Below are positions 9,741-62,975 of a stretch of DNA of 64,000 nt, piece after piece. The position numbers and the translations under genes were made by a program. Every line of letters starts with the position of its first letter. The stretch's first letter is position 1. Source of the DNA: Amphiscolops sp. MND2022 (Eukaryota); assembly GCA_964187785.1 (NCBI GenBank), contig OZ076409.1, positions 14,138,001 through 14,202,000 on the forward strand, read 5' to 3'. The notes beneath the pieces were generated by a model that saw only the letters and a program-made list of their open reading frames with translations, did not search any database and had not been told where the DNA came from.

Positions 9741-9802
9741 TGCAAAAATAAAACATTGAGCCTGTGCTTTGAAACGAACAATCATCACAACAGTTATCGA
9801 CA

Positions 9803-10756: not shown

Positions 10757-10815
10757 TAACTGAATTGAATGATGTTCAACTTCAATCGGAGCACGGGCAT
10801 TCCTAACCTTAAAAA

Positions 10816-13800
10816 ATGAAAAAAAGCCTAAAGTTTTTCATTCTTTTTGGTCTAATACCTAATTTCTTAGTATCAAAAGAAATGCCTGTGCAACCAATGA
10901 ATGGACGATCCCCAATGAGATACGAACTAAAATCCAAGTGCAAACATTTTGAGCCTAATCGTTTTTTTATATCCGTAATCTCTCCACTGATCAAAAAAAT
11001 ATTCCTCTTTTGGAATAAATTGAAACAAGCATCAATTGGTGAGCCTAGTTTTTTAAGATTGCGAACCACTTTCAACATGTTTTTTCAATGGAAACTCTCT
11101 TTGAGCGGCGACATTGAAATAAATCCAGGACCACTAATAAACTTCAAGTATTTAACAACCTTGTTCAAGAAGAATAATAGGAGTTTGAAGTTTTTCCACC
11201 TAAATGCACAAAGTTTACTTAAAAAAAGATCGACACTCGAAAATCTCATCAACGATCTTGGTGCAAACACCATTTTTGGTTTTTCAGAATCATGGCTAAA
11301 ACCCAGTGATGACAAGAAATTATGGCAAATAAACCCAACTCATTTCAAAACATTTCGGACTGATAGAGAAGCACCAAATAGAGAAAATGGTGGAGGAGTA
11401 ATGCTAATAATTCCTGCATGCCTTAATCCCAAAACGCGGAACGATTTAAACTATTTGAATAAAGAACTTTTTGAAAGTCTCTGGATCGAATGCAGCTTGA
11501 ATAATAGTACTTCCAACAAGAAGAAGCAGTTGATAAATATTAGCTACAATCCGAAAAAACATATTACGATCAATTTCTTGAAGAGTTATCCATAAGTATT
11601 GATCATGCAATTGTCGAAAATAAACCACTGACAATGATGGGCGATTACAACATAAATTATCTGAACCAAAGAGAAAAAGAAGATCTTGGAACTGTTATAT
11701 TGCCCTATGGGTTAACAACAATCAATACTGATCAACCAACCAGAATAAGCAATAAATCGGGGTCATTGATAGATTACATTATCACGGATCACTATAATGC
11801 TCATTCCTTTTCATCATTTGTATCTGACACCCCGTTCCGTACATCAGCTAATAATACAATCGATCATTTTGCGACTTCTGTAATTAGTAATATCAATTTG
11901 CAACCCTCGCCAAAAGTTTTCATGAAAGAAATCTACGATAAAAAGTCTTACAAAAAAGAATCTTTTCAAAACATACTGGGTAATTGTAACTGGAAATACT
12001 TTTATGGACAAACGTGTCCTGAGGGAATGTTCACAATACTAACGAGTTTTATTGAAAATTCCTTGCGTAAATCGATATCAAAAAAGAAAGTTTTTATCCG
12101 CAATGATAAGAGTAATCTAACCATTCATCAGAAGTGGGTTTCCTCTGAGACCAAACATCTTTATAACAAAATTAAGCAAGATATGAATCCAAATGACTTA
12201 AAATACGAAGACATTCAACAGCAGTTTATTCGTAATCTTAGTTTAGATCGCGATGAGAATAAATCTAAATATTTCCTCGAATTAACTAATGAACGAGAAA
12301 AATGGAACTTCATAAATGAGGCACGGAACTCGCTGAGAACAAAAACTGTCATCCCATCTTTAAAAAATGTTTTTGGAGATTATGTTACAGATCAAAAGAA
12401 AGTAGCAAACCTCCTCAATTACAGATTTTCAAAACTGGGCGATTTTATTGGGCAATGCAAATTTTTCAAAGAAGAAACGTTTAATATTTCTTCGATCCCA
12501 AACTTCGCAAAATTCAGTTTTCATCCGATAACTCTGTATGAATGCAAAAAAATAGTGAGGAGCTTAAACACAAAGAAACCACTTGGACCATCTAATATAC
12601 CTGCATGGGCGCTTAAAGACTCTCTAAACGTCATTGCTGAACCACTCACATTCCTCATAAATGCGTTTCTTGAACAGGGAAAATTTCCAAATCATCTTAA
12701 AAGAGCTCATGTAGTACCAATATACAAAAATGGTGACGCGGAAGAACCAAACAATTATAGACCTATATCAATAACTTCAGCCTTATCGAAAGTTTTTGAA
12801 AAATTAATTTGCAATCAAATCCTAGAACATCTCGAAAGAAATAATTTACTAAGCCAAATTCAATTTGGTTTCAGAGCAAAGTACTCGACAACAGATGCTC
12901 TTTTGTATGCTACGGAAAAAATAAGATCTGATATTGATAACAACAAAATGGTAGCTGCGGCCTTTCTCGATTTATCTAAAGCTTTCGATTCCATCTCCCA
13001 TGAAATTCTATTGGAAAAGCTCGAAAATTTAGGATTCGATCAGATAGCTATTTCTTTAATTGGAAGCTACCTGAGTAACAGAACGCAAAAAGTTGTTATC
13101 CAAAATACATCATCTGATTGGATTGACTTATACCAGGGTGTTCCACAAGGTACTATTCTCGGTCCTCTCCTATTTAATCTATATGTTAATAGTATGCAGA
13201 GTGCAATCCAAGAACCATGTGAATTGGTTCAATATGCAGATGACACTTTTCTGTTTGTCTCCAATGAATGTCTCAATACTGCTGTAAGTCAACTTGAAAC
13301 TAATGCTGCCAACTTAGTTGACTACTTTGAAAAGCATCGATTAAACCTCAACGAGAGTAAAACTGAATTCATTGTTTTCTGTAAAAGATCTAAAAACAAT
13401 TCTACAAAAAACCTAACATTTCGTGTTAGAAATCATATGACAAAACATTCCTCGTTTGTGAAATACCTTGAAATATACTTAGATCAAAATTTGACATATG
13501 AGTATGAAGTGAAAAATATTTTAAAGAAAATGGCATGTGGTATTAAAACTTTATACTCAGTGAAATCGTTTCTACCAGATAAAACATGTTTAATGCTACT
13601 CAACTCTCTTGTTATTAGCCATATACATTATCCAGCATTACTACTTAATGGAATTTCACAAAATTTAATTACAACCCTAGAGAAACAACTAAATTGGGGT
13701 GTGAAAGCTTGTTTCAACCGAAGGAAGTATGATTCCTCTAGTGATCTAAAAATAAAGCACAATATTTTTCCGATCAGAATTCTTTTAGATCTAAAAGCAG

Positions 13801-14120
13801 TCACCTACTTCTGGAAATATCAGAATAACCTACTACCTGCTTTTAAGAGCTCAAATAAAACAACAACTGCTCTGATAAAAACGCAGTCACGGACAAAGGA
13901 AATTAGTTGCGATTGTCCAGCAAAAAGTGCTTTCATGAAAAATAGTTTCTTCATGAGAATTATACCCTTGTGGAACAGCCTACCACTAATGTTATTCAAG
14001 GAAAAATATTCTATCGAAACTATTAAAAGTAAACTGAAACGATACTTTATTGGTAAAATAGCCCATGAAATAGAGCATCCAGAATATAGGAAGAAGTGTT
14101 GGAGAGATTATCGATTTTAA
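10816..14120 (+). pseudogene. LINE ORF2: leader, 2A-like peptide, APE endonuclease and reverse transcriptase; one frameshift
   Basis: APE motifs HLNAQSL, SESWL, GGGV, MGDYN, LIDYI, DH; RT motifs NYRPIS, QFGFR, FLDLSKAFD, GVPQGTILGPLLF, YADD. The two ORFs (10816-11595, 11634-14120) join if one A is restored in the A6 run at 11554-11559 (PKKTYYDQFLEEL). The usual YLG motif reads YLE. Confidence 0.92.
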
Positions 14121-33925: not shown

Positions 33926-33943
33926 CACTTCAGGAAGTAGTAT

Positions 33944-34877
33944 TGTCAGAACGAGTCACGTTCGTGTTAATAACGGTGTTGAGTCCGCTACCTTCGATCG
34001 CCGGTGATGATATTTTCTCAGTAAGGGCTAACACAATGTTTGTTAATTCACTGATTTGTTTATTCATCTCCATGAAACGTTGATCAACGGAATTCAAACT
34101 GGAATTTTGTCTAACATTGATTAAATCCCCATTCTCGAATTCATTTATCTGGTTTCTAGATAACGTGTTAGGGAAACTATATTCGCTCTTGTTGTCACTA
34201 TTTTGTTCCTTTCCGCTAGAACACGCAGCATAACTATCTACGTTTTGAGATCTAGTATTGACCATCTTTGAACCTTCGAAAGGAATTGTTGTTTTAAAGG
34301 TTTATTGATTTTAATTGAAAATATGAATAATCAAGTTTTGACTAAATCAATGAGGTAAGCAACACTACGTTAGGCTGTGTAAAACTTCGTACTGATGGTA
34401 CTTCAACTCTTGTCGCAATTTTTACTGCAGTTGGTCACGTGACTGCATTGACCAATAGTATTGCGCTATTGATTAGGTATTAATTGGTGCGTCCTGCTGG
34501 TAGCAACGTAAATGGTGTTTTGTACAAAAGGTAGCACCAATATGTTACCATGGTTACATGAATCATCTATCACTTGCGTTGGTTGATACAAATTGCGTCT
34601 ATGATGGTGCACTACCAACGTTATATATGATAGTACATTTTGCTGATGAAATTAAATATGGTGAAAGCACTTGTACGTAGCGTGTAATGAGTAAATGATG
34701 TCAACGTTTACAATTCGTTTTTTATTTTAGAAAGTAATAATAATGATGGGATAGGCCCGTCATTGTTCGATGGTAATTCATGGTTATTGAAATATCAAGG
34801 GTATTACATTTAACTGAGTTTTTTTTTAAATGTTTAGAGTAATCTTTATCAGTTTCATTCATGCTTCCGGCATGACA
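33944..34877 (-). repeat. 3' LTR (934 bp)
   Basis: TGTCA...TGACA termini; about 15 substitutions and 1 indel versus 48753-49685 by eye (~98% identity). Confidence 0.97.
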
Positions 34878-34889
34878 CTCCCCCTCTTT
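34878..34889 (-). promoter_or_regulatory. Polypurine tract
   Basis: Minus strand AAAGAGGGGGAG directly abutting the 3' LTR. Confidence 0.93.
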
Positions 34890-35907
34890 AAAAGAAAAAG
34901 CGATGTGCAGGGGTCTTTGAAAATCTGATAGCGGGGAGGTGAGGTAAATGTAGTAGCTTCAATTATGCAGTAATTATTGGCTGTTTAATCGTTCTACGAA
35001 GGTGATTTGACTGGTGTAGTGACCTCAGCTAGTGTTGGATTGTCCGTTACGGATGATGTCATAGCAACCACGTCGTTAGTGATGAGTCGCTTTGATGGCT
35101 TGGAGTACTCGGATTGTTTGGGACCAATTGTTACTTCGATTCGGTACAGCAACTGAGAGGAAGAGAATGAGTTTAGCGTAACGAGTGAACCACTTCGGTA
35201 AATAGTAATTGTAGAGTCGGTGTGGCGAGAGTAGCCACGTCATCCAATTGTGCGCGTCGTTTGTAGTAAGAGTTTAAGTAAGAATGAATCTGCCGGAAAT
35301 TAGTTGAACGTGGCAGCGTGATATAATTACTCGGCTCATTCGGTAACTGTTCGGAAGTGAATGTAGTGGAACATCGTACGCTTTGTCAACAAATCTTCGT
35401 CGGTGCTAAATACGAGAGTAGAAGTAAGCTTGGTTACGGTTGATTCAGTTGTTGATTGAAGTTGTTCTTATCCAGTTAGCGATATACCAGGTGGATGTGA
35501 TTTGACTAGCGGTAAATCGGTTCAGTGAATGCTGTCTGCATCTAGGTTGCTCTGCGTGGAAAACTCAATTGCAGTGTAGTAAGACTTCCGAATTTGGCAT
35601 TTTGTTTTCTTGGTTTTCTCTTTTCCCTTTCTTTTCTTTAGTTTTGAGTAGGATCCAGCGATCTTTAGTATTCGAACGCAACCGTTCTTTGAGTTTGAAT
35701 TTTTCTGAGTGAATTATTTTCGAGTAAATTCGGTTGAAATTTCTCTTTGTGATATTCCGGTGTCTTGTGAACACGGAGGGTGTGGGTGATCAGACCACAT
35801 CTCGTATTGTCAAAGACGCTGAAGCCTTGTAGATCGCGAATTCTACAGTTATAGATCCTTGTTGTCTCGTTCGCCATTGGTTGTTCGTGATTAGTTCCAT
35901 TACTTGG

Positions 35908-38900
35908 ATGTTATCCCCCGAATTGTCTGAAGAAGAAGTTGCATCGATTGTGATAGCCGCGGAAGGCGCGCTAGCTGAGATGTCAAATTTGGAGCAGTTA
36001 TCTGATGAAGAAGGTTTCCAAGCCTCAGTTGATACGTTGTTGGAAGGAGAGACACCATCAGTGTGCTGCCAGTTTGCTCAGCGTGTGAATTCGTCCAATG
36101 TAGAGGCTGCTACTACTTTGTTGGAGATAGCTCTCTCCAGTGAATTCCGTAAGTAAATCCGTAGTTATCATTTTCCTTCTTTATGGCTACTGAGACGGTC
36201 TTTCAACGTGCTTGCTATTGTGTGCTTTGTAATTAGGGGTAAGCTCGTCAAGGTAATTGAAATGTTTGTTGCATTGGTATTTGTGTAATGTAGTTACCAA
36301 CGTCTCGACTAAAAGGACTTCCCGGAAACTATTACCTTGGGTAGACTTCTGGGCATTGCAAATGGTACTCATAGGTTAGATTGTACCATGTATGTTGCAG
36401 AATCTTTGAGTCTGACCGATATCGTCGCCGCTCTACGACGAATGCTTCGACAGAATGAGCCTCCAGTAGTTGCATCTCCCGTGAGTGCCGTCGAGACTGG
36501 GCTCCGGAATTATGTATACAGCCAAACTGGTAAGTCTGTTCGCTAACTGATCCATTATTGTAACGAAGGTGTTGCATGATCGTTATTGCTCTGTACGGCG
36601 TGTCAGTTTTTTATGGTTGGCTTCGCGATTCACTCTCGTTTACACGATGTGTAGTAATCTGCGTTGTTATCTTTTGGGTGGGATGTTTCCAGGTACGGCG
36701 TTGGGTGGCTTGTTAACTCTAGACGACGTCGTTGCTGCTATCGCTCGACTGCAAAATGAGTTGTCCGGCGTGGTTAAGGCCACCATCGAGTCCACTCTTG
36801 GTCAGCTCGGGACAGTTGGGGCAATGGCTGTGGATGAGTTTGTCGGTCAGCTGACTGCAGCAGTTTCCCGTTTAGTCCCTGCTAGTGGCTTGAAAGCAAC
36901 CGTGCCTGGGGAGGATGCCCCCTCATATCGTCATCATCATCTGTGGGTGTTGCGCCAGTTGAAAGTGATGCTCAAAAAGACTTGTCCGTCGTAAGTCGAA
37001 CGGCATCGATGGTTCCTTCCATTTTTGGAGAATGGACCGTAGCAGGATCATCCAGTGCAGGGAAAGTGGCTGCTGCTAAACCTGGTAAGAATCTCAAAAG
37101 ATCATGGGCGGGGTTTTAGTGAACACTAATGTTAAGATTATCAAGAGACAAGACTAGATATATATGTTTTTTTGTTTTTATATATATGGGACTATTTAAC
37201 GCGTTGTGTGTTTGCGTTCTAGCTCGTGCTCGGAAGATCAAGACGCTCAAGCCGTCTTCCTTTGTTTCTGGCGTCGTGGGGACCTTCGTTGGATTCCCCC
37301 GGAACAAGCGGGTGATTGACGGTTACGCTCGATGTTTACTTTGTCGTGCGGATTTGAGCATTGCAGGACGTGGTCTGTCATCGTTATGGGATCACTGGAA
37401 GGGAGTTGAACACACCCGATTGGAGCAAAAGTACAGGATTATGACACACAGGCCATTGTTGGACAAGTCTTGCAGACTAGTATCTGCAGAAGAAGATCGA
37501 CGGATCAGACGTGCTCGGCTGACCGAACCGCCGGTCTTTCTAGAGTCTGCGCTAAAGTTAACTGTGGAGGAGCGAATAGCCATTGAGGAGGCAGAGGCTG
37601 AAGAAGGCGCGCGTCCGCATTTGCAGGACGAAAGTGTGAATTACTTGTGGCTGAGTAATTTCGTCTCAAGTTTTCTGACTGTGACGTCCTTTGATGGGTT
37701 GCTCCGGTCGCTGGACTCATGGAGGGACTGTATGGCAAATGAACTTCGTTTTGAGTGCCGTACTCTGACCTACTCTCGATGTCAGGTAAAAATCAGATTT
37801 TGCAGTTATTATTAAGTTGTACTGGTTACTTAGTTAACTTGCTAGTCATGTGGTTGCTATCGGTGCATTGTTACTCTTTTCGGGTACGGGTGTTGTGTTT
37901 GCCTAAGTTTTTCGGTAATTTTATCAGTTTGTTTGATTCTGTTTAGAGTCTCGTGCTGTATGGCTTGTACCAGTATGCAGTTGAGCAGTTAGACGCACTG
38001 GTTGCAGCAAGCTCTTGCATCGGCGTTTGCATCCGTCAGTGCGATTGGCGGTGGTGTGGTGAGCTCCACATCGTTGGCGTAAGATAATGAATAGATATAG
38101 ATGAAATTTATAAAAAAAATAGATTAAATTATTTCTCATAGTATAAATAGATATTTAGAAAGTCCATGGCATAACTTCAGTGGTCTTGGCGCTTGTTTCC
38201 GGTGGAACTGGATGGGAGAAGCGGCTGTTGAACAACGTCATCCCAGTTCTTGCGTGTCTCAAAGACAGAACTCAATTGAAGACGATTGCGCGTGTCTCAA
38301 AGACAGAACTCAATTGAAGACGATTGCGGTAGAGGGTGATGTACATGTTGGGCGGGCGTTGGCTGCAGTGGTATCGCCTAAGACTCCTCTCGTGGTGGGG
38401 TTGATTACGCAGCGGTCAGTGTTCAACGAGGTACAAAAACAGTTTCTCGCAGAGTTCGCGGGTCTAGATCCCCTCAGTGTCCTCGAGTACTTTCGTGTGA
38501 GGCTGATGTCCGTTGCTCAAGAGGGTTTCTTAGACCGTTTGTCGTTATTGCGGCGGGTTAGTAAAGAAAACCCTTTTTTTGTGTAGTTCATGGCATTTGC
38601 GTAGGATTTCGATTGTTTGGCTCTGGTAAAAAGGTAGATCGTGTTCTTGTTTTGTAGTATTTTCGACTCGGTGGAGATGACGTGTCCCAACTTGCACTGG
38701 TTTGCGCAGAAGTGGTGGACTACTGGAATGATTTGGCGCTGTACTTTGGTACTCATAGACCGGGAGTGACGTCAGAACTGCGTCCGATTACTCCTCTAGA
38801 AAGTCAGGTGTTCGAGGATGCACTGATTCGGCCTCGTTTTGCTGTTCTGCGCCTAGTGCTAGATTTGAGTGAGTATGGGTTTATATGCGGTTGATCGGAT

Positions 38901-40394
38901 ACTCATTTGGGTACACGTGTAGCTGTAAGTTTGTATGTTTGAATATGGTTAAAAATTAGGTTATGTGGGGGCGTATGGAGCTAAAGTACAGCGTGTAAAG
39001 TTTGGTGTGTAACTCTTTGGTGTTGTGTTTTAGTGGTGAAGCACTGCCCTAGTTTGTGTAGACGTGGACGCGATTATGGCATTGTCTCGGAACGGGAACT
39101 GGCTCACTTTTTGCGTGGACTAATGAAGTTTATCTATCCGGCTCACAGTATTCCAGCGGAGTACGATATCGCTGCCCTGTTGAAAAATGTGAACCGGGAG
39201 TATGCAAACGTTGACTCTAACATGTATAGATTACATTTCTGGCAGTATTTCCGTTTCGACATCAGCACTCAACTGCCTTTCTTTTACAAATCTGTCCAGA
39301 AAATGTTAGTCGGTATATGTCGCGGATTGAGCGGATTGTGGCAGCGTACGTGGCCCCAGCATTTGAGCTTGACTCCATTTGATCCGGTTCTTATTCATAG
39401 CGGGTCGGATGATCGCTGTGTCGACTCCTTAGTAGCAACTTGTGCTGTGTTGACTGCTCATGGGCTTGTGGGGCTAGATGATGGCAGAGTAGTCCAGCAA
39501 CAGTATCGCGAAGTCACCCAATTTTTCAAGAGACGCTGGGCCTTTACTACGGAAGAACTACCAGTGGTGGAGGACATTTTCGCATTGTGGATGTCATATC
39601 CTCACTGGGAGCGGTGTGAACAGTTGCGGCAGGTCATCGATCTGGCTTTCAGTGCAGTGGCCACTAGTTCGTACCGGGCGGATTTTGTGGATGACGTCGA
39701 CGGAGCTTTGGATCCTGATGAACTGGCTTCAAGTGTGCATTTCGTCCGGAGTTGGTTCAGTCAGTCTTTTGTGGGAAAATCGCGTAACCAACTACGTGGT
39801 TTGTTGCGTGTCATTGAGACAACCGACATGCAAGTGTCTCGTTTGAACGATAGCGTTCGCGCTAAACCGTGGGATCAACTTCTCAAAGTCGGACTGGATC
39901 AAACGTTGTCCTTGTGTGTGTCCATGTTGGACAATGGTCCTGATACCGCAGTCGTTCCGGTGGTGGATGAGTATCGTTCGACAGTACTTGCGCAGTTGAA
40001 TGTTATTGCGGTAATGGCAACGAGCCCTACTCGTGTAGCGACGGGTCCTAAAGCGATGCCATCCAGTAGAGACGCGAAATCCAAGCGGCCCCGCAGTCAG
40101 TCTGATGTGAAATTGAAGACTCCCAAGAAGACGCCTAACGCGGCTACGGTTGGAACCTCTAAATCTACAGAGCGAACGAGGAGCGTCGTGGTCAGTCGGC
40201 GAGGTCATAGCGCAGCGGTGAAGTCTGGAAAAGGACGGCGGACTGGCGTGAAACCGCATGCATCTAAGAGACTTGTATTATCTACGGCGGCAAGTGAGGC
40301 TTCAGATCATGGTAGTCAATCGTCCAGTGACGATGTGCCACTGTCTACTACTAAGCGGATGAAGCAGGTCATCCGTGATTCATCGGATGAATAG
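35908..40394 (+). pseudogene. Antisense 8-exon cargo gene inside the Gypsy element; ~1129 aa after correcting two lesions; BED-like zinc finger plus degenerate hAT-transposase-like body
   Basis: Exons 35908-36148, 36401-36529, 36693-37084, 37223-37785, 37947-38078, 38159-38556, 38658-38868, 39034-40394. All 7 introns are GT-AG (80-252 nt) with matching phases (1,1,1,0,0,0,1). Requires +1 C in the C5 run at 36918-36922 and removal of a 38-bp duplication. C-x2-C-x16-H-x5-H at 37333-37413. Start codon uncertain. Confidence 0.8.
38253..38328 (+). repeat. Perfect 38-bp tandem duplication that frameshifts exon 6 of the cargo gene
   Basis: CGTGTCTCAAAGACAGAACTCAATTGAAGACGATTGCG at 38253 and 38291. 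Confidence 0.95.
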
Positions 40395-42545
40395 TTGTGA
40401 ACTAAACATACTGTTGAGCTTGTATTTGGCAGTTTGTCGCTTGCTGAAATGATTTGTACCACTTTGAATGTTTTGCTTCTGAACGTGTAGTTTGTATATA
40501 AATATTTTTTTGTTGATTTATCGCGGGAGCGGTTTTAGATGTATCGGAAGTCACAAGATGCTAGTTGCGTTACCCGGTAACCTCCTTTTCTACTTGTTGG
40601 ACTTGCGGTTATTTTACATGTTTTAGAACGTTGAGCTTGTTTTTCAGTTTTCATTTTGATGATTTTTGTTCCATTCTGCATACCTGTTGTGTTGTTCTTT
40701 CTTCATGATTTGTAGTATTCAGTTGTTGTTGGTCCATGACCTTTGACTAGGTTTTGTTTTACTTCCAGTGCCCTTATTACAGTTGAATTCACATGTTGCC
40801 TACGTTATACAAATTTTTTACCCTAATTTGCATGTAAACTTAGATAGCTGGTCTCAAAATGTTGGAGCGATAGGCTCAGCTTTGCAAGTCATTCAAGTTC
40901 TAGTAGAGTAGTCGCCTAGGTAACTACCCTTGAAAAGCTCTCACTCACCAAGTGCCAACCTCGTGTCAGCATTGTTCATGATTATAGCTTACATATGACA
41001 GAGGTGGAAACTTGGTGGGTGGGTGGAGTCGCTCAACTCCTACAGATGATTTGAACTTTTGAGTAGCTGCTTTTATAGTGCTCTAGTTGGTTGTTTGACA
41101 GGTGTTTACTAACTTAGGTGTCATTCTAATCTGTCAGTTCATGTTGAGTTTTACATAAATTTATTTCTCATGTAGCGTTATTCTTGACGTCGTCATCGTT
41201 GATGTGTGTCATGCGACGTCATCACTCGTGTCGTGTGTCAAGTGTTAATGTCAATCTTAATGGTAGATGGGTTTCCCCATAGCCATTAAACTTTTTGACA
41301 AGGGGTGGTGAGTTCCATCCCTTGTTACGAATCTTCGGTGATGTAGTGAATAAGACTGCATGTTTTTTGTTGTTCTGTCCTTCCCCCCGTGAGGCGAGGC
41401 CTACGAATCAACAGTAAGAACGAAAGTGTCATGACCTGAATTCGATGTAGAGGTGACGACTGCATTTTACTGTCCTAGGAAAAGTTTTATATGTTGTTCA
41501 TTGGATTGAGAAGGTTATTTGCCGTCGCAAAAACCCATACAAAACTAACACCGAATCCACTTGCTAAAGAGCAAGCTTCATCTGAATGTTTGTACAACCA
41601 CACAGACGCGCATTTGACGACGCACCCACACAGCCGAACCACATCATGATTTCCTGGGCGGAAGTGCGGGACTAGATTTTGGCGGCGTAACTTAACTAAG
41701 GCAGCTATCTTTTTTGCATGTTCAGTTGTGTGCTGTTACTTTTGCTAAAATGGTTTATTACTGTCGTCGTAAGGTTGGTAAGTACAGAATTGCAAAGCAA
41801 TTCCTTTGAAAGCGTGTGGTTGGGGTTTTCTGTGAATTGCATAAATTAGTAGCTCGTTTGCGTGTGTTTTACATGTACTTAATAATTTCCGGTTAACGTG
41901 ATGTGGTGTGTATGACTGCATTGCATGTATTTACTTTTGCGCTCAGCTGTCTCGGTAGAGAGTAACAGTATACTCTGCCGGTAAACTCAAGTATGTCGGA
42001 CAGTGAGTATCAGTCGTCACTGAATGGCCTAAAGTAATCCAAATAAATTAAAGGTATGATTGATGCATGTGGTGATGTCGACTACATTCAATTAATTGCA
42101 TGTATATTTTTTCTTTATTTATGGTGAAAATGACGTGGTTTGTGTGGCAGCGTTAGGTGTTTCTTTTCGTTCGTACTGTTGGTGGAATAGAGTGAGACGT
42201 TAAATAACGCGTAGCGACGCAGTGTGTGGAACTGCGTTACGACTGTCTCGTCTGTCGTTCGTTAGCCGGTTAAGGGCGGAAATATGCTCTGGCCGGTAAT
42301 TTTGAAAATTGATGACAGTGAGTGTTAGACGTTATTTATGGTATCATTCAGTATTGTTTTTCTTCGTGTCTACTTGATTTAATTTACATGTATGTGTTAC
42401 GAGATTCTCTCTTTTTTGTTTTTAGGAGAGAGTGTAGGACACTCCCATTTAATTTTTGCATGTGATATCACTTCTCGTACCGATACGAGGCGAAGCCTAC
42501 GAGTTGTCAGCAGGAGGGAACACAGATTTTATGTTTGCATGCGTT

Positions 42546-45500
42546 TTAGTCGGCGGATCTGTCTTGCATGAATTTTAGCAGAGCCGGTTTGACTCGGAGT
42601 TCGTGGACTAAGAAGTCTTGGTAGGTTTTCGGTTGCGGTTCGGTTCGGAGGTTGTACCGTGTTGCGTTGTTACGCGACGTTGTGTGGTCATGCTCATTAT
42701 GAACTGCCGTTGTATGTTCAGTCACAGATTCGCTTGTTTCAGTATCAGATTCGTTGTTGGTGTCGTGATGAACAACTGAATTGTCAGGCGGTTGCTCGCA
42801 GGTTTCAGGTGAGCTCTCCGGAATTGGTTGCATCAGCGTATGATCGTTCAATTTCCGTACATGCTCATAATAGATAAGGCCGTGTTCATTATTGATTTCT
42901 TCTTGATCGATTGTTTCCGGTGCCGGTTCTGCATACAAATGCTGAGGCATGTGGTCATTGAAGAACACTTGATCATCGGCCGCATCGGGGTCAGCGAACA
43001 AGCGGTTTGAGTCTTCTTCAATGTCCGGTATTGGTGCGTTCCGAGTGAAAGGACGTAGTCGCATCCTATGCACGCACTGTGTTCGGAAGGTTCCGACCTT
43101 CCTGATTATGTAGTTAAAGTTTGTCAGTACTTTAATTACTTTGAAGGGACCTTCCCATTTGAAGTCATTGAAGTTAATCTTGTCGGACTGCGTTGTGAGT
43201 TTAGGATTAAGCAGAAATGTGTAATCGTTGACCTTTAATGGTAACGCTTGGGCTTTACGGTCGTAGTACCTTTTGTACTTGTGGTATGCTTGCAGTATGT
43301 TATCATTGACTTGTTGGTATTTGTCGTTCACCTGGTCAACTAAACTTGTTATATCAGTTTCCGTGGTTTCACATTTCAGAGGGTTACCGAATTTGAGGTC
43401 TAACGCGTTGAACGGAACTCTGCCGTGGAAAACTTCGCTCGGAGTGCACTTGAGTGATTGATGGTAGGTTGTGTTATGAGCCATTACTGCAAGATTAACG
43501 TACCTGTCCCATTGGGGGGAGTCGACGGAAATGTTAATCTTCAGAATCTGTTTCAGCCTTTGGTGGGAACGCTCCACCATCCCTATGGTTTGGGCATGCT
43601 TTACAGTAGCGTGGTCGATTTTGATTCCGGCAGTTTTCATGATTTCGGTCATGATGTTGGATGTGAAAGCCGTGCCTTTGTCGGTGATAATTGTCTTCGT
43701 GACGTAGGCGTGTTGGGTGAATATTTGCATGCGCGCTTTTACAACCGATTTAGTGTCTGGTTTCCGTATCGGCACAGCGAACAAATACCGTGAGAAGTAG
43801 TCGCACGCCGTCAGGATGTGCGTATATCCGTTTGAGTTAGGTAGTTCACCTACTAAATTGATTTCCAGTACGTCTTCCGGACCGTTACAGGGGTCGTAGA
43901 TTTTTTCTAGAGGAGGCGTTAGTCGTTTTGGGTTAACAGGTTTTGCTTTGATGCACTCAATACAGTTACTTACGTACTTTGAAACGTGTTCACTCAGGCT
44001 TGGTATGTAGTAACGCTTGCGGAGTTCTACCAACATTTTTGATGCCCCAGGGTGTCCCTGCATGGGGTCGCCATGCATTGTCCTGATTATGGGCATGGTA
44101 GTTTCTGGAGGTACTACGATTTGTTTAAGTAGAATTCCGCCAGTGTTATCAAAAAAGTTCCTGTACAGTACCTTGTTGACTACTTCAAGTCTTTTTTTGT
44201 TTTTTACCAGTTTTTGAAAAAAGGAGCTGGTAAAGTTAACGTGGTTTGGTAGTGGTTCGTTGTTCACTAAAACGCGAACCATTTTTTGGACGTCTTGGTT
44301 ACCTAACTGATCTTGGACGATTTGTGAATCCCCTTGCGGGCATACCTGATTTACCGAGTTAAGGTGGTGACGTCAGGTAAACCTCGTCAGTATGATGGAA
44401 GGGGTGTCTCCTGCCAGAAAGGGTTCAAGGTGTCGGCTGATGATCTGAATCATCTTGAGACGTTCGTCGTCATGTGTTTGAAGGTTGTTCGCCATTGAGT
44501 TTAGCAGAGTTCGCATCTTGGTGAAGTCGTCTGCTGGACCGGTGGTTTCAGACTGATGTGTAGTAGCTGTCGCTGCATCGGGTTGCTGTCGGTCTGGGTC
44601 GTAGTCTTCTTCGTCCTCGTCCTGTTTTGGGGTTTTGGCCGCAAGATCTATTTCGATGTGGTGGACTGGAATCTGGTCATTCAATTTCAAGTGAATTCTG
44701 TCTTCAGGATTAATGTCTAGTCGAGACAGGTAATCTGCAGCTGGGTTCTCGACTCCAGGGACGTGGGCGAGAACAAAGTCAAATTGAAGTGCTTGGTCAC
44801 AATGGTTCCATAGTTTGGGTGGTATTCGTTTCGACTGGAAGAAGCGGGTCAAAGCCTTGTTGTCTGTCATCACAATTGTGGGTTTTTTGACACCCCACAG
44901 TATGTGAGCAAATTCGTCGAAGGCGAAGTGCATTGCGAGGAATTCTTTAGCATACATGGTCAATGACATTTGACCTTCCGTGAATCGTTGCGAGCCGAAT
45001 GCTACAGGGGCGTACGTCTTCTTCTGTCGATCATTGGCTTCGGTGTAGTTCTCAATGAGGAGCACGTACCCTGCTGCGTGTTCACTCGCATCACACATGA
45101 TGACCAGTTGTTTGTCTGGTAGTGGTAGTCGCAGAGATAGTTTTGCAGCTCGTGCCAGGTTCTGATTAATATCAAAAATTGCGTCCTTGTGAACCTGCGC
45201 CAGGGTGAACTTGATGTCTTTCTGTAGTAGTTTGTACAGGGGTACCAGCTTTTCTGCCAACATCGGTATGTACTGTCTGTAGAAATGTACAAATCCGATG
45301 TAGCGTTGTAGTGATTTGACTGACGTTGGTTTTTTCAGGTTGTTGAGGAATTTGTCGATCTTGTCCTCAAGTGGCGCAATCCCTTTGTTAGTGATGCTTC
45401 TACCCAAGAACTCGATCTTTGGGTGACCAAAGGCGCATTTAGACATCGACAGCTTTAGACCTGCCTTCTGAATCTGCTGGAAAACTGCTTCGATGTTGAT

Positions 45501-47243
45501 TATCAGTTCGTCCACATTGTTGGCAGCGATCCCAATATCGTCGACGTATTGGGCACATTTGTCTGCTTTTACTAGTGCATCTAAGTACTCTCGAATTGTA
45601 CTGTTGAACGCAGACAAAGACCTATTCAACCCTTGCGCGAGTCGGAGGTAAGCAAAAGTTCTGCTGCCAAAATTGAATGCCAGAAGTTGTATTGATTGTT
45701 CGTCGGCCATTTGGAGGCAGTGGTAAGCTTGCGAACAGTCAAGCTTGCAAAAGTACCATTTGCCAGCCATATGCTGGGCTGCATCGGCAATGGTCGTTAC
45801 TGGGTGGTTGTGGTTGTTGTAGTCATTTTTGAGGAGGTGGTTGATCCGCCTCAAGTCGACTAATATCCGAAGTTTCCCGTTAGGTTTTCGTTGTGCAAAA
45901 ATTGGAGAGGAATATTTGCTGTATGGTAACGTTGTGATGATCCCGTACTCCTGCATCAGTGCGAGTTCGACCAGCAGATCATCTTTCAGATTGGTTGGAG
46001 TAGGTAGACTCTGGGCGTACACGGGATCATCGTGTTTGGGGGCCAGCTTGATCTTGAAATCGGTGTTGATGCCGATATCAAGACGATGTCTAGCAAATAT
46101 CGTGTGGTATTTGACGAGCAGTTCTTCGATCCTCTGTTGCTCGTGCTCAGTGAGGATCGAGTCGTCCCAGCTGAAACTTTTGAGGAACGTTTGGCGTTGT
46201 TCGTCATCGCATGTCGGGTTGAGTTTTTCAGCTTCTCGGAGTTTGATGAGTTCGTCGTAGATACGTCTTTCTATTTCATTTAGGTTGTCAGGATCGTCAC
46301 ATGTTTCGGGCGTCGGGTACCATCGTTTATCATTTGTGGCGCTGGGATCCTGGAACAATTGGTTGATCACATTAGCCGCTTCATCAGGGAATTTAGTGAT
46401 CAACGCCAGCTGCTCGTTGGTCATTGGCTGGATTTTTCTGGCTTGGTTTGGCGTAAGTATTCGGAAGACTGCGATTGTGCTGTTCTGAGGTATTGTAACT
46501 GCGTGGTCCATGTGGTTGGTAATTTGGACGTGTGTCTGTTGGTTCTTGATTTCAGACATTGATGGTGACACTAGCAATTCGGTTTTTCGTTCAAAAGCTG
46601 GGAACGCCTCTATTGTGCCTGTCACTATTCCAATGTTCTTGTCTGTTGTAACAGTCACAAAGATTTGTTGTCCCGGCGAGATGGTTGTTTTTTGGGTTGT
46701 TCTGAGTTCCAACATCTGCAGTTTGAGTTTCCCGTTTGGCGGTTTTAGTTGGAGGGTTATTTCTGGGAATCGCACAATGTTCTTTGCAAGGTCTAGCGTG
46801 ACAGAATATTTTTTAAAGAAGGACATTCCGATGAGGATGTTTCCCATTGTTGGTAGGATCATGAAAGTCTCTTCGAATATTTTTCCCCCAATGAAAAATC
46901 GAAGAAGCACTTGTTTTCTCACCGGAACGATGTTTCCGTTGGCTATTTGGACTTTGAAGTCCGGTGCTGGATATTCTTCCAACTGGGCTGCTGGGTGGGC
47001 TTGTAGGTTTCGACGTAGCTCGTTCTCAGACATCGCGCTCTGGATTGCTCCAGTGTCCAGTAGCCCTTGATTTTCATACTCACGGAATTGAAGAGGGACG
47101 TAGAGCATCTTGTTTCTTCTGTCTAACTGGAGTGTAGCGCTTAATGGTCTGATGTTTGTTGGCTTCGATTGGTGCTCCTGTTTGGTATTGTCATCCAGTT
47201 CGTTCGGCCTTTGGCCGGGTTGACACTCTCTCGTTGGTGTGGT
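42546..47243 (-). pseudogene. pol: Gypsy pol: protease, RT, RNase H, integrase; in-frame TGA at 44373-44375
   Basis: LLDTGA (PR), YVDD (RT), CDAS/KEF/TDN/ADYLSR (RNase H), H..H..CIEC zinc motif, ITDKG and VERSH (IN), GPF motif. ORFs 44373-47108 and 42546-44282 are in the same frame across one stop. The first integrase Asp appears as Asn (EINLVG). Confidence 0.95.
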
Positions 47244-47484: not shown

Positions 47485-49074
47485 TTACAAGTTTTTTGAA
47501 TTCGTGTCGTATTCATCGTTGTAATCCATGTCGTAGCAGTCGTTGGTTTCTTCTGGTTGGGTGGTCTGGCTTGTCGCTTGCGTGACTTGGTAGGTCGGTT
47601 GGTAGTTGTTTTGTGACTGTTTGAATTCACGGCGGAATTCTCGGTTTTCATTGGTGGATTGCTTGTCATATGGTACATTTCGGTAAGCCGATGCACCTGG
47701 TACCCTGTCTCTGCAATCCCGTGCTGAATGTCCGATCTTGCCACAAATTTGGCATACTAATTTGGAGTTGTATCGTGGTTTTTCGGTTTCTTGTTGTTGG
47801 GCATTGTTGTTTCCAGATTGGGGACGTTGTTGTGATTTCTTCGTAATTCCGTTGGCTTCGTCCCTGAGGCGTTTACGGCATTCGATCCACTTGTGGCCCA
47901 GTATGTTGCAGTATCTGCAATTTCCTTCGAATCTTCGTTTGACTTCTCTTGTTGGGTTCTTCTCGGTGTTGTTCGGGTTGTGGGCTGGCTGAGCGTTGTT
48001 TTGCTTTGGTTGGTAGTTGTAGACCTGGTTAAGTGGGTGCATATCTGAGGTGCCGGGGAGCAATTGTGCATATTGGCAACGGTGTTGTACAAACGTCTTG
48101 ATTTCTTCGACCTTGGCATCGTGTTTGCCTGCCATGGCAAGTTCATTCTGAATCTGGATTGGTAGTTTGGCAAACAAGAATGTTTCGGCTATGTCATTGG
48201 CTTTATCTCCGTATGCTTGTTTGGCAAGTTTCTTGTATCTAGTTAGGAAATCGGCAAATGATTCCTTTGTGGGGTCATACCTCATCTGATCGAATTTGTA
48301 CTTCGATACCTCTTTGAGGTCTTCCTTCGCATACTCCTTGGTGAAAGCTTGCAGTACGTCTTGGAGTGTCGTTTCTGTCGTGATTTTTAGTGTCTGTTAG
48401 AATTCTATGGCCTCGTCTCTGAGCAGGCTTTGAAAATAGTTTAGCTTCTGCTCTTCTGTTAATTTGTTCATGTGTGGGCGGAGGTGGTTCTTCAGTAGGT
48501 GTTCGAATTCGTTGTACTTCTCTCGGTTTCCGCGGAAGAGAGGTACTTGAGTTTGGAGGATTTTGGGCTGTATTACTCCGTCGGTCATTGTTGTTCGTAG
48601 GTTGTGTATTTCGGTCAATACATCATCCATCTGAGGTTCGTTGGTGGGTGGTGCACGATCTCTGTTTTGGTGAGTTGCAGGGGTTGGGAGGGTCCTGCGT
48701 GGCTGTTGGATATTTGGAGTCGGATTTGGGTTCGTGGAGACTCCTGTCACCATGTCAGAACCAGTCACGTTCGTGTTAACAACGGTGTTGAGTCCGCTAC
48801 CTTCGATCGCCGGTGATGATATTTTCTCAGTAATGGCTAACACAATGTTTGTTAATTCACTGATTTGTTTATTCATCTCCATGAAACGTTGATCAACGGA
48901 ATTTAAACTGGAATTTTGTCTAACATTGATTAAATCCCCATTCTCGAATTCATTTATCTGGTTTCTAGATAACGTGTTAGGGAAACTATATTCGCTTTCG
49001 TTGTCACTATTTTGTTCCATTCCGCTAGAACACGCAGCATAACTATCTACGTTTTGAGATCTAGTATTGACCAT
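47485..49074 (-). pseudogene. gag: Gypsy gag with two CCHC zinc knuckles; in-frame TAA at 48397-48399
   Basis: ORFs 48397-49074 and 47485-48285 are in frame across one stop; CRYCNILGHKWIEC and CQICGKIGHSARDC. Confidence 0.92.
48740..48752 (-). promoter_or_regulatory. Primer binding site, tRNA-Leu-like
   Basis: Minus strand TGGTGACAGGAGT directly after the 5' LTR; resembles the complement of the metazoan tRNA-Leu 3' end (ACTCCTGACACCA) with one mismatch. Confidence 0.75.
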
Positions 49075-49685
49075 CTTTGAACCTTCGAAAGGAATTGTTG
49101 TTTTAAAGGTTTATTGATTTTAATTGAAAATATGAATAATCAAGTTTTGACTAAATCAATGAGGTAAGCAACACTACGTTAGGCTGTGTAAAACTTCGTA
49201 CTGATGGTACTTCAACTCTTGTCGCAATTTTTACTGCAGTTGGTCACGTGACTGCATTGACCAATAGTATTGCGCTATTGATTAGGTTTTAATTGGTGCG
49301 TCCTGCTGGTAGCAACGTAAATGGTGTTTTGTGCAAAAGGTAGCACCAATATGTTACCATGGTTACATGAATCATCTATCACTTGCGTTGGTTGATACAA
49401 ATTGCGTCTATGATGGTGCACTACCAACGTTATATATGATACTACATTTTGCTGATGAAATTAAATATGGTGAAAGCACTTGTACGTAGCGTGTTATGAG
49501 TAAATGATGTCAACGTTTACAATTCGTTTTTTATTTTAGAAAGTAATAATAATGATGGGATAGGCCCGGCATTGTTCGATGGTAATTCATGGTTATTGAA
49601 ATATCAAGGGTATTACAATTAACTGAGTTTTTTTTAAATGTTTAGAGTGTTCTTTATCAGTTTCATTCATGCTTCCGGCATGACA
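48753..49685 (-). repeat. 5' LTR (933 bp)
   Basis: Direct repeat of 33944-34877, followed by the TSD AGTAT. Confidence 0.97.
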
Positions 49686-50419
49686 AGTATAGCTTAGGCT
49701 GCATACAAGAGAGATTTTACAAACTTTGAGACACGTTAGATCTACTTTTTAACTTCGGGAAACGCGTTTTTCTTCAAAGAACAGAAATATGAGTTACCTC
49801 TCCATTTTATTCCACATGACGTTATCTGTAGTTGCTGCTTGCTGTGTTGTTTGTCATACCGTTCACCATTCCCTGTTTGTTTTCCGGTATTTTCTCCATT
49901 TCGAATGAACTGTGTGTTTTGTACGCTCAACAACCAGACTCATGTCACATCAACTAACTTCAAAAAAGCAGCTTTTTGTCACAACCACAAAAGTTTTGTT
50001 ATCCATTATAAACGCTGCAGATAATGAAGATAATGAAGATTCAGACTAGTTCTCATTGCGCCTCCGAAAAAGGAGGATTTTTACGATGAAGATTGCAATA
50101 TGAAACATACTTTTTTTGTACAAAATTCTGTTTTTCTTGAAAGTATTCAACCAATCAAAACAATAATCATTCCCGAAGAATGTTAGGTATTGCTTTGTGG
50201 GACAGAAAAAAATATTTCACCTTCGAATAGAAATCGAAAATACCCATTCAGGGCAGAGTCTCTCTAGTCAGCACCTTTGACTCAAGAAAATCTCTGTTTT
50301 TGATGGAGTTTTTACAATTGTGAGTTTTTCCAAAGTAAAAAAGAATTGATCTTACTCCATTATATAGAGTTACTCAGCATGGTTACGTGCATAGAAGGTT
50401 TCTACGTTTTCTCCAGCTA

Positions 50420-60419: not shown

Positions 60420-62975
60420 TTAGGAGGAATTAAATCTTATGAAAATTTTTGCGGGGCTTTCCGGTGAAGCTATTACATTTTGTACTAAAGCGTCATAATC
60501 TTGGGAATTTTGAGGTGTTTTAATATCGTTAATGTTGTTTGGGTGTGTCTTTTTTGGTGATTGAAAGGTTGGATTTTTACTTGTATTTTCAGGAGGTAAA
60601 TACGGGGAGTCATTATCAGAGTATCTTATTTGCTTATGTGTTTCTTTTTCGGATAACAGGATATGATCATTTTCACTAGTGGTAATTTTGTGTTTAGTAT
60701 ATATCTGTTTACGTTTTCCTGTATTATTTGAATCGGTAACCATTTCCGATGTGAATATAACAAAAAATGCATGGGCTATTGAACTCAAAATGGAAATTTT
60801 GCTTTGGAGATTATGTTTTATACTAATTGTCCTGTAGAATCGGAGTAGGAAAGTTAAAACTTCTCTTAAAAAAAGGTAGAGAAGTAAATTCCACATTGTG
60901 TTAAAATATAACATGGGTATCCGAATGAATGATTGAATGCTTGACTAAACCAATTAGGGTTGAAGAGTGGTAAAAAGTTCAACAAATGATCATGTAATCC
61001 AATCTTCAAATGATTATAAGGATTTGATTCTGTGTGGGAGTGTTGTTCATTATGCATTGTATTGAAATCGTAACTTAATGATTTTCCAAGTAATTGGAGA
61101 GTTGTATCTGAGTGTTTTGCGAATAATACTCTATTCCAGAATTGATCTAATTCTGCATTTGAGTAAATACCGGCATCTTGAGCTGTGAATGTATTGGGTG
61201 TTATTCATGTCTTAATTTGAGTGGGTTTAAACATTTGTGGTGGTTCCTTTTGTAGCGGGTCTGGTGTTAACACATAACACTCTCCGTCATCTGCATCTGG
61301 GTCTAATTCAATAATAATTTGTGGATTGTTTCCGCATTCTATTGGTGTGGCATAATTAAAAGTTTGTCTCGTTATAGGGTCTACATACATGATAGTTTCT
61401 CTATAGAGTATGGGAATTCTATCAAAGCATTTGTCTGCTTTGAATAGTGGCGATATGAAATGAGGGCAATCATACAACCATGCTGTAGATCCTTCGACAT
61501 AAAGGAAGTTACTGTTACTGCGATTTCCAGATAGAAGGAAACCGGCTAATTGAGGGTTTTTAACTGACATAGCTAAGATTGTTAACAGTTGTGTTCTTTC
61601 TAGTTCACATACTGTGTGGAGATGGTTTAGTTCTTGTACTGTCATTGATTTGAATACGGGCTTTATTGTGAAGTCAATTTTGGTATTAATATGAGCATCG
61701 TAATCTATGGTAGCGAAATTATTTGATATATTTAATGCAGGGATTATATATTTTTGATTAGAATTATCAAACTGTATTTTTCCACTAATATTTTGGTCTA
61801 TTATTGAATGTGGTTTTGACTGTCCAGTATTCATATCAAAACCATCTGAATAAGTAACAAAAATGTCGTCGTATTGTGTTGAAAATAGTGGTTCTGGTTT
61901 TCCACAAAACGTTTGTGCAATGGGATATATTTCAAATCCAGAAAGACTTGGATTGTCTACTGTTGATTGAGGTGTTTTGACATTGGGGTATTTTGTTCCT
62001 TTTATTCCTTCGGTCTGAAGGTGTTTTGTGATATTCGAGGAATCGATAAAGTTATCTGTTTCTATCCAATAACGGTCTTTAATTATTGTCATTCTTCCAA
62101 TGAATTCCTGTAGTCGAAGTATGAGGCAAAATTTTTCATCAAACCATGTTAATATGTATGGAGTTCTTGTGGTGGGTTTACAAAATCTTTCTGAATGATA
62201 ACATGGTATGGTAATATATATCCACCATGAATCATTTGATTATTTCTATCGTCATAGGTTATTTCAGCATTAGTTATTCTGAGTTTCCAGCTTTCTCGGG
62301 TTATTAAATGTTCTCTGTCGCTTCTACATCTTGAATTTTAATTTTGTGTAAAATTAACTATCCAGTCTTAGTAATGTTCATCATATACGAATGTTCCAAT
62401 ATGCCAAGCGTTTAACTTGCTACTCTGAATGGTTTTTGAAATTGTTCAATTTTGTTTCGATAATCGCTGTCATCAAAAAATGAGAAAGAACTTTGTATGT
62501 TGTAATTGTTTAATTCTTTACTATCAGTTGCGTTTAAATATCTTATCATGTTTTTACATTCAATAGGGTCAAGTCTTTTCGGAAGTTCTAGTGTATTTTT
62601 CCCCATTTTAAACGATCATATCGTCTACTGGATGAAAAAGTTTGGGAACACCAAACTTTTTCTGTTTTTATATATGCTCCACATTTGAAGGCTTTGATTC
62701 TTTTTGCTTTTGCTCTAACATATACTGTTGCTTGAGTTTTCGTATGATGTATGTCTGAGGATGCTTGTTTACATGGTTCAACATGTAGTAAGCTGAATTG
62801 TCTTAAGTTGTTTTGTTTTGCACAGTCATAATGGGATACCATAAGGTTCTAAATGTTTGGGTCTTGTGGTGAAATATGGTTTTCTGGGTTCGTTGTATCA
62901 GCTTTAGGAACTGATGTCGTATTAGCTAGGTGTATTAGGTAAACAATATGTAATGAAAAGTACGTCTATCATAGT
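60420..62975 (-). pseudogene. env: env-like fusion glycoprotein (chuvirus G / herpes gB-like class III), fragmented
   Basis: SHYDC..N..FSLLHVEPC near the N-terminus, CYHSERFCKP..TW..C, helix CELERTQLLTILAMSVKNPQLAGFLL..EGSTAWLYDC, CFDRIPI, C-terminal hydrophobic segment; several stops and frameshifts. Confidence 0.75.

Follow-up and report, generated by a model that had tools for sequence, protein, structure and literature searches.

We examined a 64,000-nucleotide stretch of the genome of an animal, Amphiscolops sp. MND2022 (contig OZ076409.1, positions 14,138,001 to 14,202,000 of the forward strand; hereafter, the window). The window contains a complete Ty3/gypsy retrotransposon insertion of 15.7 kb, on the minus strand, in which 7.7 kb of additional DNA (34878-42545) separates the integrase from the polypurine tract (PPT) at the 3' long terminal repeat (LTR). 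We think it likely that these 7.7 kb are an integral and long-conserved module of a Ty3/gypsy clade, namely a protein-coding accessory gene with seven exons, which runs antisense to the element's other genes and whose product would bind DNA in the nucleus. Comparisons with other copies in the same genome show that the predicted gene belongs to the element, that its exon-intron structure is conserved, and that it is under purifying selection.

The genome assembly of the host has 1.07 Gb in 1929 contigs. Its gene content fits an animal, with 146 matches to the domain of rhodopsin-type GPCRs (7tm_1). Fungal_trans and an arthropod cuticle domain gave no matches, but these two zeros are weak, as their controls gave none either. 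It contains at least 40 scored copies of the last exon of the antisense gene (exon 7), at 87-100% identity, among 114 first-look candidates. We analyzed 20 of the 40 scored copies, spread over the range of identity, with 10 kb around each. All 20 are collinear with the window as far as their sequence reaches, and in 12 the collinearity extends from the 3' LTR across the antisense gene and into the integrase. (The other eight have assembly gaps, deletions or rearrangements; three contain runs of N.) So the 7.7-kb segment is not a one-off insertion. The original prediction, which was made from the window alone, was of an antisense accessory gene that is stably replicated along with the element, and it proposed to look for the same gene at the same position in other copies. 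The gene is at that position in 20 of 20 copies and also in 3 of 3 diverged lineages, and together with the selection described below, these collinear copies and lineages support the proposal. Separately, some of the copies of exon 7 are clustered in the genome. There are three on C3, 22 kb apart (56944781-56990768), and four on C13, 1.6-4 kb apart (45783329-45791811), which suggests tandem arrays or rearranged elements.

We then built a model of the gene from 21 aligned copies. In this model the family's gene has seven exons and six GT-AG introns, and its coding sequence is 3387 nt long (1128 codons plus the stop codon). The modal lengths of the exons are 241, 129, 393, 563, 489, 211, and 1361 nt. 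In 2 of the 20 other copies, the spliced frame is unbroken from the ATG to the stop codon, across all 1128 codons. Unbroken frames of this length, in two copies, cannot be chance. The expectation that other copies would have intact frames thus held for these two; the rest are not intact, and the window copy is broken as well. The splice sites are conserved: for introns 1 to 6, the most frequent full donor word occurs in 18, 18, 18, 11, 20, and 18 of the 21 aligned copies. (Nearly all of the variant donor words of intron 4 still have the initial GT.) The acceptors are an AG at the end of a pyrimidine-rich run. Also, for all 17 of the open reading frames (ORFs) homologous to exon 5 that were aligned, the similarity ends exactly at the predicted donor of intron 5, and the next codon is for valine (GTN). 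In the window copy, the parts of the gene and the conserved non-coding islands near it are as follows.

35190-35415, plus strand: non-coding island upstream of the ATG; candidate for the gene's own promoter or 5' untranslated region (UTR)
35908-36148, plus strand: exon 1 (ATG at 35908; 2 of 2 diverged lineages have a homologue of it)
36149-36400, plus strand: intron 1, GT-AG, phase 1 (donor at the same place in two diverged lineages)
36401-36529, plus strand: exon 2
36530-36692, plus strand: intron 2, GT-AG, phase 1
36693-37084, plus strand: exon 3 (frame-broken in the window copy)
37085-37222, plus strand: intron 3, GT-AG, phase 1
37223-37785, plus strand: exon 4, with a BED-like zinc finger (the most conserved part)
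37786-37946, plus strand: intron 4, GT-AG, phase 0
37947-38556, plus strand: exon 5, predicted domain with an RNase H-like fold (489 nt in other copies; disrupted twice here)
38079-38161, plus strand: 83-bp AT-rich insertion in exon 5 (absent from 20 of 20 other copies)
38252-38327, plus strand: perfect 38-bp tandem duplication in exon 5, which shifts the frame (private to the window copy)
38557-38657, plus strand: intron 5 of the family, GT-AG, phase 0
38658-38868, plus strand: exon 6
38869-39033, plus strand: intron 6 of the family, GT-AG, phase 1
39034-40394, plus strand: exon 7 (the last), predicted helical domain and basic tail (stop codon at 40392-40394)
40395-42545: spacer, on which the antisense gene and pol converge with their 3' ends
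41186-41239 and 41480-41645: islands in the spacer that are conserved between lineages

This model differs in one respect from the original prediction, which had eight coding segments and seven GT-AG introns. Six of those introns are present across the family, but the remaining one (38079-38158) is not an intron, and the gene has seven exons. That stretch is the GT..AG portion, or the first 80 bases, of the 83-bp insertion. The length given earlier after correction (3390 nt, or 1129 amino acids) is revised to 3387 nt (1128 amino acids), as the surplus codon, AAA, was left over when 80 of the 83 inserted bases were removed. The inserted sequence is also found (as 83-84 bases, at 99% and 90% identity) on two unplaced 2-kb contigs with 25% GC content (L031:1034-1117 and L032). 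Because the same sequence is present on these two AT-rich contigs, the insertion is, judging by its sequence, filler DNA that was copied from elsewhere and not an intron of the family. (That it begins with GT and has an AG three bases before its end is by chance. The two contigs are 89% alike, and no tRNA gene was found on either; their AT-rich sequence might be satellite or organellar DNA, or of another kind.)

The window copy itself is dead. Its antisense gene has three lesions that break the frame: the insertion, the 38-bp duplication, and a 1-bp deletion in a run of C in exon 3 (36918-36922; the extra base is present in all 17 of the other copies that we compared). There are also in-frame stop codons in gag and pol. 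Joining the eight segments that were originally proposed does not give an open frame, and if the exons are simply joined, the first stop is at codon 224.

To look further back, we compared the window to three diverged lineages of the element from the same genome, two of them with upstream DNA. Exon 7's protein sequence is 38%, 40%, and 59% identical to the window's in these lineages. Each of the three has an integrase ORF (57-67% identical) 1.7-2 kb past the end of the gene, on the other strand. For the two lineages with upstream DNA, we located exons 1 and 3-7 in each and exon 2 in one of them, and these exons keep the window's order and nearly its spacing. The protein identity of exon 4 in the diverged lineages is 73% and 56-78%. 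At the homologous boundaries, both of these lineages have GT donors and pyrimidine-AG acceptors in the same phases. At the DNA level, the lineages align only in the exons and in a few non-coding islands, and not in the introns. We consider this strong comparative evidence for splicing of the predicted transcript, and by the same comparisons, the combination of antisense gene and gypsy element is old.

The database homologues of exons 7 and 5 are exon-sized ORFs from ENA, with no name and no Pfam domain. For exon 7 there are 160 representatives at E ≤ 0.001, and 76 proteins of nearly the same length are 36-94% identical to it; for exon 5 there are 26 of nearly the same length. A search for longer homologous proteins found none. 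Two of the homologous ORFs were checked against this genome: both occur in it at 100%, and they have 1141 and 965 first-look candidates there. By these counts there are many diverged lineages in the genome, and some of these include runs of identical copies.

Over 229 bases, the island upstream of the ATG (35190-35415) shares 83% identity with a lineage in which the coding exons reach only 64-74%. It lies outside of the LTR, 0.5-0.7 kb upstream of the ATG. This conservation suggests that it is the gene's own promoter or 5' UTR, which would fit better than a start in the 3' LTR, the possibility that the original prediction had raised by analogy with HTLV-1 hbz.

The islands in the spacer are 81-89% identical between lineages, versus about 70% for coding DNA. 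On the minus strand, an alignment of four lineages gives a consensus fold for 41480-41645 (and also 41186-41239) with 38 pairs, of which 5 have compensatory changes. Possible roles for these islands are as a structured part of the genomic RNA and as a shared terminator.

We also tested for selection on the protein, using the ratio of nonsynonymous to synonymous divergence (dN/dS). We used the Nei-Gojobori method (NG86), with codon columns from one open copy, for 24 pairs between young and old subfamilies (each of 4 younger copies with each of 6 older copies). For the antisense gene, dN/dS is 0.13-0.26 (mean 0.19), compared to 0.11 for the integrase in the same pairs; copies decay neutrally after insertion, so these ratios overestimate dN/dS for active lineages. 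By exon, dN/dS ranges from 0.10 (exon 4) to 0.44 (exon 2), with exons 4-6 at 0.10-0.13. In exon 3, two old copies have a 3-bp indel that is in frame. These codon comparisons show that the predicted protein is under purifying selection. Selection near the level of the integrase argues that lineages that lose the gene do not persist. Also, it had been proposed that if the gene is real then its exons should be more conserved than its introns. Between lineages, DNA similarity is indeed kept in the exons, apart from the few non-coding islands, and the low dN/dS agrees with this.

How could a retrotransposon keep a gene with introns? On the genomic RNA, the introns of an antisense gene read CT..AC, and by established logic they would not be removed before reverse transcription. 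Because the introns are antisense on the genomic RNA, every new copy would inherit the gene with its introns.

Next, we consider the element itself. The original prediction described a Gypsy retrotransposon with extra DNA behind pol, and the expected parts are all in place: LTR ends with a short target-site duplication, a primer-binding site (PBS), a PPT, and the domains of pol. Between the two LTRs there are 15 mismatches and a single 1-bp indel; both begin with TGTCA and end with TGACA. A minus-strand ORF at 44373-47243 matches Pfam's gag-asp_proteas, RVT_1, and RT_RNaseH, and another at 42546-44372 matches Integrase_H2C2, rve, and Integrase_p58_C. The order of the domains in pol is protease, reverse transcriptase (RT), RNase H, and integrase, as in Ty3/gypsy elements. 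In the window copy, there is an in-frame stop codon between the RT-RNase H part and the integrase part. The parts of the element outside of the antisense module, along with the PPT, are as follows.

33939-33943: target-site duplication, left copy, AGTAT (the same 5 bases are at 49686-49690)
33944-34877, minus strand: 3' LTR, 934 bp, TG...CA (by alignment to 48753-49685)
34878-34889, minus strand: PPT (a purine run up to the edge of the 3' LTR)
42546-47243, minus strand: pol, with protease, RT, RNase H, and integrase (by Pfam matches; adjacent ORFs in the same frame)
47485-49110, minus strand: gag, with a zinc knuckle (one in-frame stop in the window copy)
48735-48752, minus strand: PBS, starting with TGG, directly after the 5' LTR
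48753-49685, minus strand: 5' LTR, 933 bp
49686-49690: target-site duplication, right copy, AGTAT

The open frame of gag starts within the 5' LTR and crosses the PBS (48753-49110, minus strand), and the same start of the frame is found in the 3' LTR (33930-34301). In an Rfam scan of the whole element, all of the matches were below threshold.

We then examined the predicted protein. Exons 1-3 are acidic and are its least constrained part; in exon 1, 16 of 80 amino acids are D or E and one is K or R. Exon 4 encodes C-x2-C-x16-H-x5-H, within a stretch that hardly differs from one lineage to another. (In one degenerate copy, the first C of this finger is replaced by S.) The nearest named clusters in the ESM Atlas are BED-type, with scores of 0.87, 0.83, and 0.83, which are below the threshold of 0.9 for a lead, and exon 4 does not match Pfam's zf-BED at E ≤ 1. 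We treat the similarity to BED fingers as a lead only.

For exons 5 and 7, we turned to models of the structure. The AlphaFold model of exon 5 (mean predicted local distance difference test, or pLDDT, of 59.6) has the elements b1-b2-b3-a-b4-a-b5-a, which is an RNase H-like topology. Its fold matches include Pelota and CoaX (Z = 8.2) and the RuvC domain of Cas9 or IscB (Z = 6.9). The match to residues 152-265 of the Hermes transposase (Z = 6.3, root-mean-square deviation (rmsd) of 3.8 across 104 residues) ranks 31st among many RNase H-like folds. Foldseek reports Dom34, UvrC, EndoV, and HIV integrase cores (E of 1e-4 to 5e-3). The homologues of exon 5 have an invariant E after strand 4. The model of exon 7 (mean pLDDT of 62.5; residues 1-210 are confident) is all-helical. 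In a wide fold search, its top match was Hermes 368-609 (Z = 4.8, rmsd 5.5, 156 residues), which was tied with unrelated proteins, and a Foldseek search of PDB found nothing at E ≤ 0.001. The last 125 amino acids of exon 7 include 27 K or R and 36 S or T, and by its composition, this basic S/T-rich tail resembles a nuclear-targeting tail. The ESM Atlas also related exon 7 to DUF6532 and DUF6698 (score 0.92), with low counts of shared features, and we consider this to be a chance match.

Our proposal for how the gene works is as follows. From the sequence, we infer that it is transcribed and spliced, and we infer the localization and function of its product. It would have its own transcription, most likely with a start somewhere in the stretch of about 1 kb that separates the 3' LTR from the ATG, where the conserved island lies. 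The transcript would be spliced and would end in the 2.1-kb spacer, which it shares tail-to-tail with pol. In intact copies the product, with 1128 amino acids, would begin with an acidic, fast-evolving region (exons 1-3). A highly conserved CCHH finger of a BED-like kind (exon 4) would follow, then a domain with an RNase H-like fold that lacks a conserved catalytic triad (exon 5) and a helical domain (exons 6-7), and the protein would end in a basic tail like a nuclear localization signal. Our best guess is that the product binds DNA in the nucleus and that its ancestor was possibly a DDE (hAT-like) transposase. The product might aid its own element, for instance by controlling transcription or chromatin, or by guiding integration.

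Several observations weigh against this interpretation. Only 2 of the 20 other copies have an intact antisense gene, and the window copy is not among them. The introns diverge by 0.08-0.21, which is less than the synonymous divergence (NG86 dS of 0.14-0.40); this could mean that dS is inflated or that the introns are under partial constraint. There are also signs that the lineages have exchanged DNA. dS of the antisense gene and dS of the integrase differ in the same pairs, and a 1.3-kb block of the spacer (40782-42094) is 94% identical to one diverged lineage (L035:1629-2928), while the flanking genes have 64-71% DNA identity. Because of this disagreement in dS and this nearly identical block, recombination between lineages is suggested, which would blur the history of the gene. 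After the stop codon of the antisense gene, we did not find the canonical AATAAA, and the first ATTAAA is at 41285.

The other difficulties concern the protein. At E ≤ 0.01, no Pfam family matches the window's ORFs for the antisense gene. At E ≤ 1, the exons of another copy and 32 homologues of exon 7 gave weak, unrelated matches below the cutoffs of the families. A profile search of PDB sequences with the exons gave only noise (E ≥ 0.038). As far as its sequence goes, the protein matches no known family. Both of the fold models have low confidence, and all of the fold scores are in the range that is rated as common. In the alignment of exon 5 homologues, we did not find a conserved acid in strand 1, which would be expected for a DDE core. 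Finally, when we used hhalign to compare the profiles of exons 5 and 7 to a genuine hAT transposase from the same genome, the probability was below 1% (0.3% for the test of the PF05699 region).

We considered several other explanations for the 7.7 kb. The predicted protein has its parts in the same order as hAT transposases and their domesticated BED-finger relatives do (N-terminal BED-like CCHH finger, RNase H-like fold, and large helical C-terminal region), the weak matches of Hermes to the models of exons 5 and 7 are in the corresponding order, and this genome is rich in genuine hAT elements (150 scored matches among 2215 candidates). All of this would fit with a fossil hAT-like DNA transposon that is nested behind pol and is passively copied, with no role for the retrotransposon. 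We think that this is unlikely. Such a passenger should decay, yet the mean dN/dS is 0.19, and the arrangement and the positions of the introns persist down to 38-59% protein identity. Also, a hAT element would be expected to have terminal inverted repeats (TIRs) and an 8-bp target-site duplication around the gene, and searches for TIRs flanking the antisense gene found none in the window and none that are shared with two diverged lineages. (The original prediction had likewise noticed no TIRs or target-site duplication from a nested DNA transposon.) The window does contain five short inverted pairs, one of which (35355-35370 with 42078-42093) is close to where conserved blocks end. Under stricter criteria the window gave no pair at all, and two other lineages have no equivalent, so we attribute it to chance. 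The sequence profiles do not link the protein to hAT, and the hAT dimerization domain (Dimer_Tnp_hAT, PF05699) matches none of 32 homologues of exon 7 at E ≤ 1. Because of the lack of a PF05699 match, the profile probabilities of less than 1%, the lack of a conserved acid in strand 1, and the lack of TIRs, we describe the layout as transposase-like and do not file the protein as a member of hAT. An ancient hAT-like origin is compatible with a conserved accessory gene, and it is only the absence of any role that is disfavored. A bolder idea, which we offer tentatively and would not bet on, is that the spliced antisense gene stems from a DDE (hAT-like) transposase, and that an entire animal Ty3/gypsy clade has long had it on board and relied on it. 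The former transposase, which now has no clear catalytic triad, would serve the element as its own DNA-binding regulator or targeting factor. If true, this would be a stable chimera of a retrotransposon and a DNA transposase, in which the antisense placement lets an intron-rich gene pass through reverse transcription.

Alternatively, the antisense unit might act as an RNA, by pairing with the genomic RNA or in silencing or regulation by small RNAs, with the open frame being incidental. The conserved non-coding islands within the module would fit with this, and such roles for antisense transcripts of LTR elements are discussed in the available text of PMC7264820. An RNA would not account for a dN/dS of 0.1-0.2, indels of 3 bp that stay in frame, an intact frame of 1128 codons across six introns in 2 of 20 copies, or protein conservation where the DNA no longer aligns, and we consider this explanation quite unlikely as well. 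(Roles for the RNA and for the protein could coexist.) The ordinary spliceosomal introns do look like those of a host gene, as if one had been captured recently in a single event, as in maize Bs1. That is very improbable given that the gene is in 20 of 20 copies of the family and in at least three further lineages, that each of two diverged last exons has about a thousand first-look candidates, and that there is no match to a named protein family. Lastly, one of the seven introns that were originally proposed proved to be a private insertion that happens to have an initial GT and an AG near its end, so one might ask if the entire pattern of exons and introns is just chance ORFs with chance GT and AG dinucleotides. 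This is hardly credible. It is ruled out by the intact 3387-nt frames in other copies, the low dN/dS, and the conserved splice sites, and the homologues (76 for exon 7 and 26 for exon 5) are limited to the exons. Of these explanations, we favor the conserved antisense accessory gene.

Extra antisense genes have been described in some plant Ty3/gypsy elements as aORF-3R. Examples are gene23 of maize Grande, rice RIRE2, Silene Retand (which has a TRP28 domain), and PvRetro13 from Phaseolus (PMC7264820, PMC11963269, as far as their available text goes). Like the gene that we describe, the plant aORF-3R lie between pol and the 3' LTR, are antisense, and are reported from most or all copies of a family (the same sources). 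Our exons (35908-40394) are on the plus strand and pol is on the minus strand, which is the same position and orientation. In the available text of these two papers, some of the plant products are nuclear or are predicted to bind DNA (PMC7264820, PMC11963269). Maize Grande gene23 is said there to be transcribed from its own promoter, and the antisense promoter of HTLV is placed in the 3' LTR (PMC7264820). Introns are not mentioned in the main text of PMC7264820 or PMC11963269. Compared to the plant aORF-3R, our gene is in an animal host, is much larger (1128 amino acids), and has six introns. Transposase_28 (TRP28, PF04195) does not match the window's ORFs at E ≤ 0.01, nor the exons of another copy or 32 homologues of exon 7 at E ≤ 1, so our gene is not related to these plant genes in sequence.

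Another antisense protein-coding gene in a retroelement is HBZ from HTLV-1. HBZ is a small basic leucine zipper (bZIP) protein that is expressed antisense from an LTR promoter, with one intron, and its splicing leaves the genomic RNA intact. In contrast to HBZ, the ATG of our gene is about 1 kb inside the edge of the LTR, and its six introns are within the coding region. A fungal Ty3/gypsy element is also said to have an extra antisense gene, as here, but in a fungal host: this is brtn, whose description is reportedly in Zhao et al. 2011 (Virology 417:248), as relayed by papers that cite it. In the available text of two such papers, brtn is an additional antisense gene of the Boty-like gypsy elements of Botrytis cinerea (PMC7264820, PMC8365987).

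Among animals, the LTR retrotransposons of bdelloid rotifers have additional conserved ORFs after pol, known as ORF3s, which are env-like, DEDDy, or GDSL (PMC5408684, in its available text). To that extent they are similar to our element, as animal LTR elements with an extra conserved ORF. The available text of PMC5408684 describes no antisense gene, uses "antisense" and "reverse orientation" for small RNAs only, and does not mention introns. Our own reading, which that paper does not state, is that the rotifer ORF3s are sense-oriented. In the literature that we searched, which did not extend to subscription journals or Repbase reports, we met with no gypsy element of an animal whose antisense gene has several exons.

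Thus, antisense extra genes behind pol are known from some plant and fungal gypsy elements, and what sets this gene apart is that it is large, multi-exon, and strongly selected, in an animal clade. It shows that a retrotransposon can retain an ordinary gene, introns included, for an indefinite time simply by carrying it backwards. The material is favorable for further work: one genome holds several lineages that span 38-98% identity, and selection is nearly as strong as on the integrase. Also, a large protein with recognizable parts is a tractable system for asking what accessory genes do for their elements.

Elsewhere in the window, there are ORFs that may belong to other mobile elements or viruses. 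An ORF on the minus strand (61205-62239) matches a viral fusion glycoprotein of the Monjiviricetes type (Pfam PF24664, E = 9e-11). This ORF could derive from an endogenous viral element, or it could be the env gene of a different retroelement. On the plus strand, 9773-14120 contains three consecutive ORFs, the last of which encodes 858 amino acids and matches RVT_1 (E = 1e-36); this is probably a non-LTR retrotransposon.

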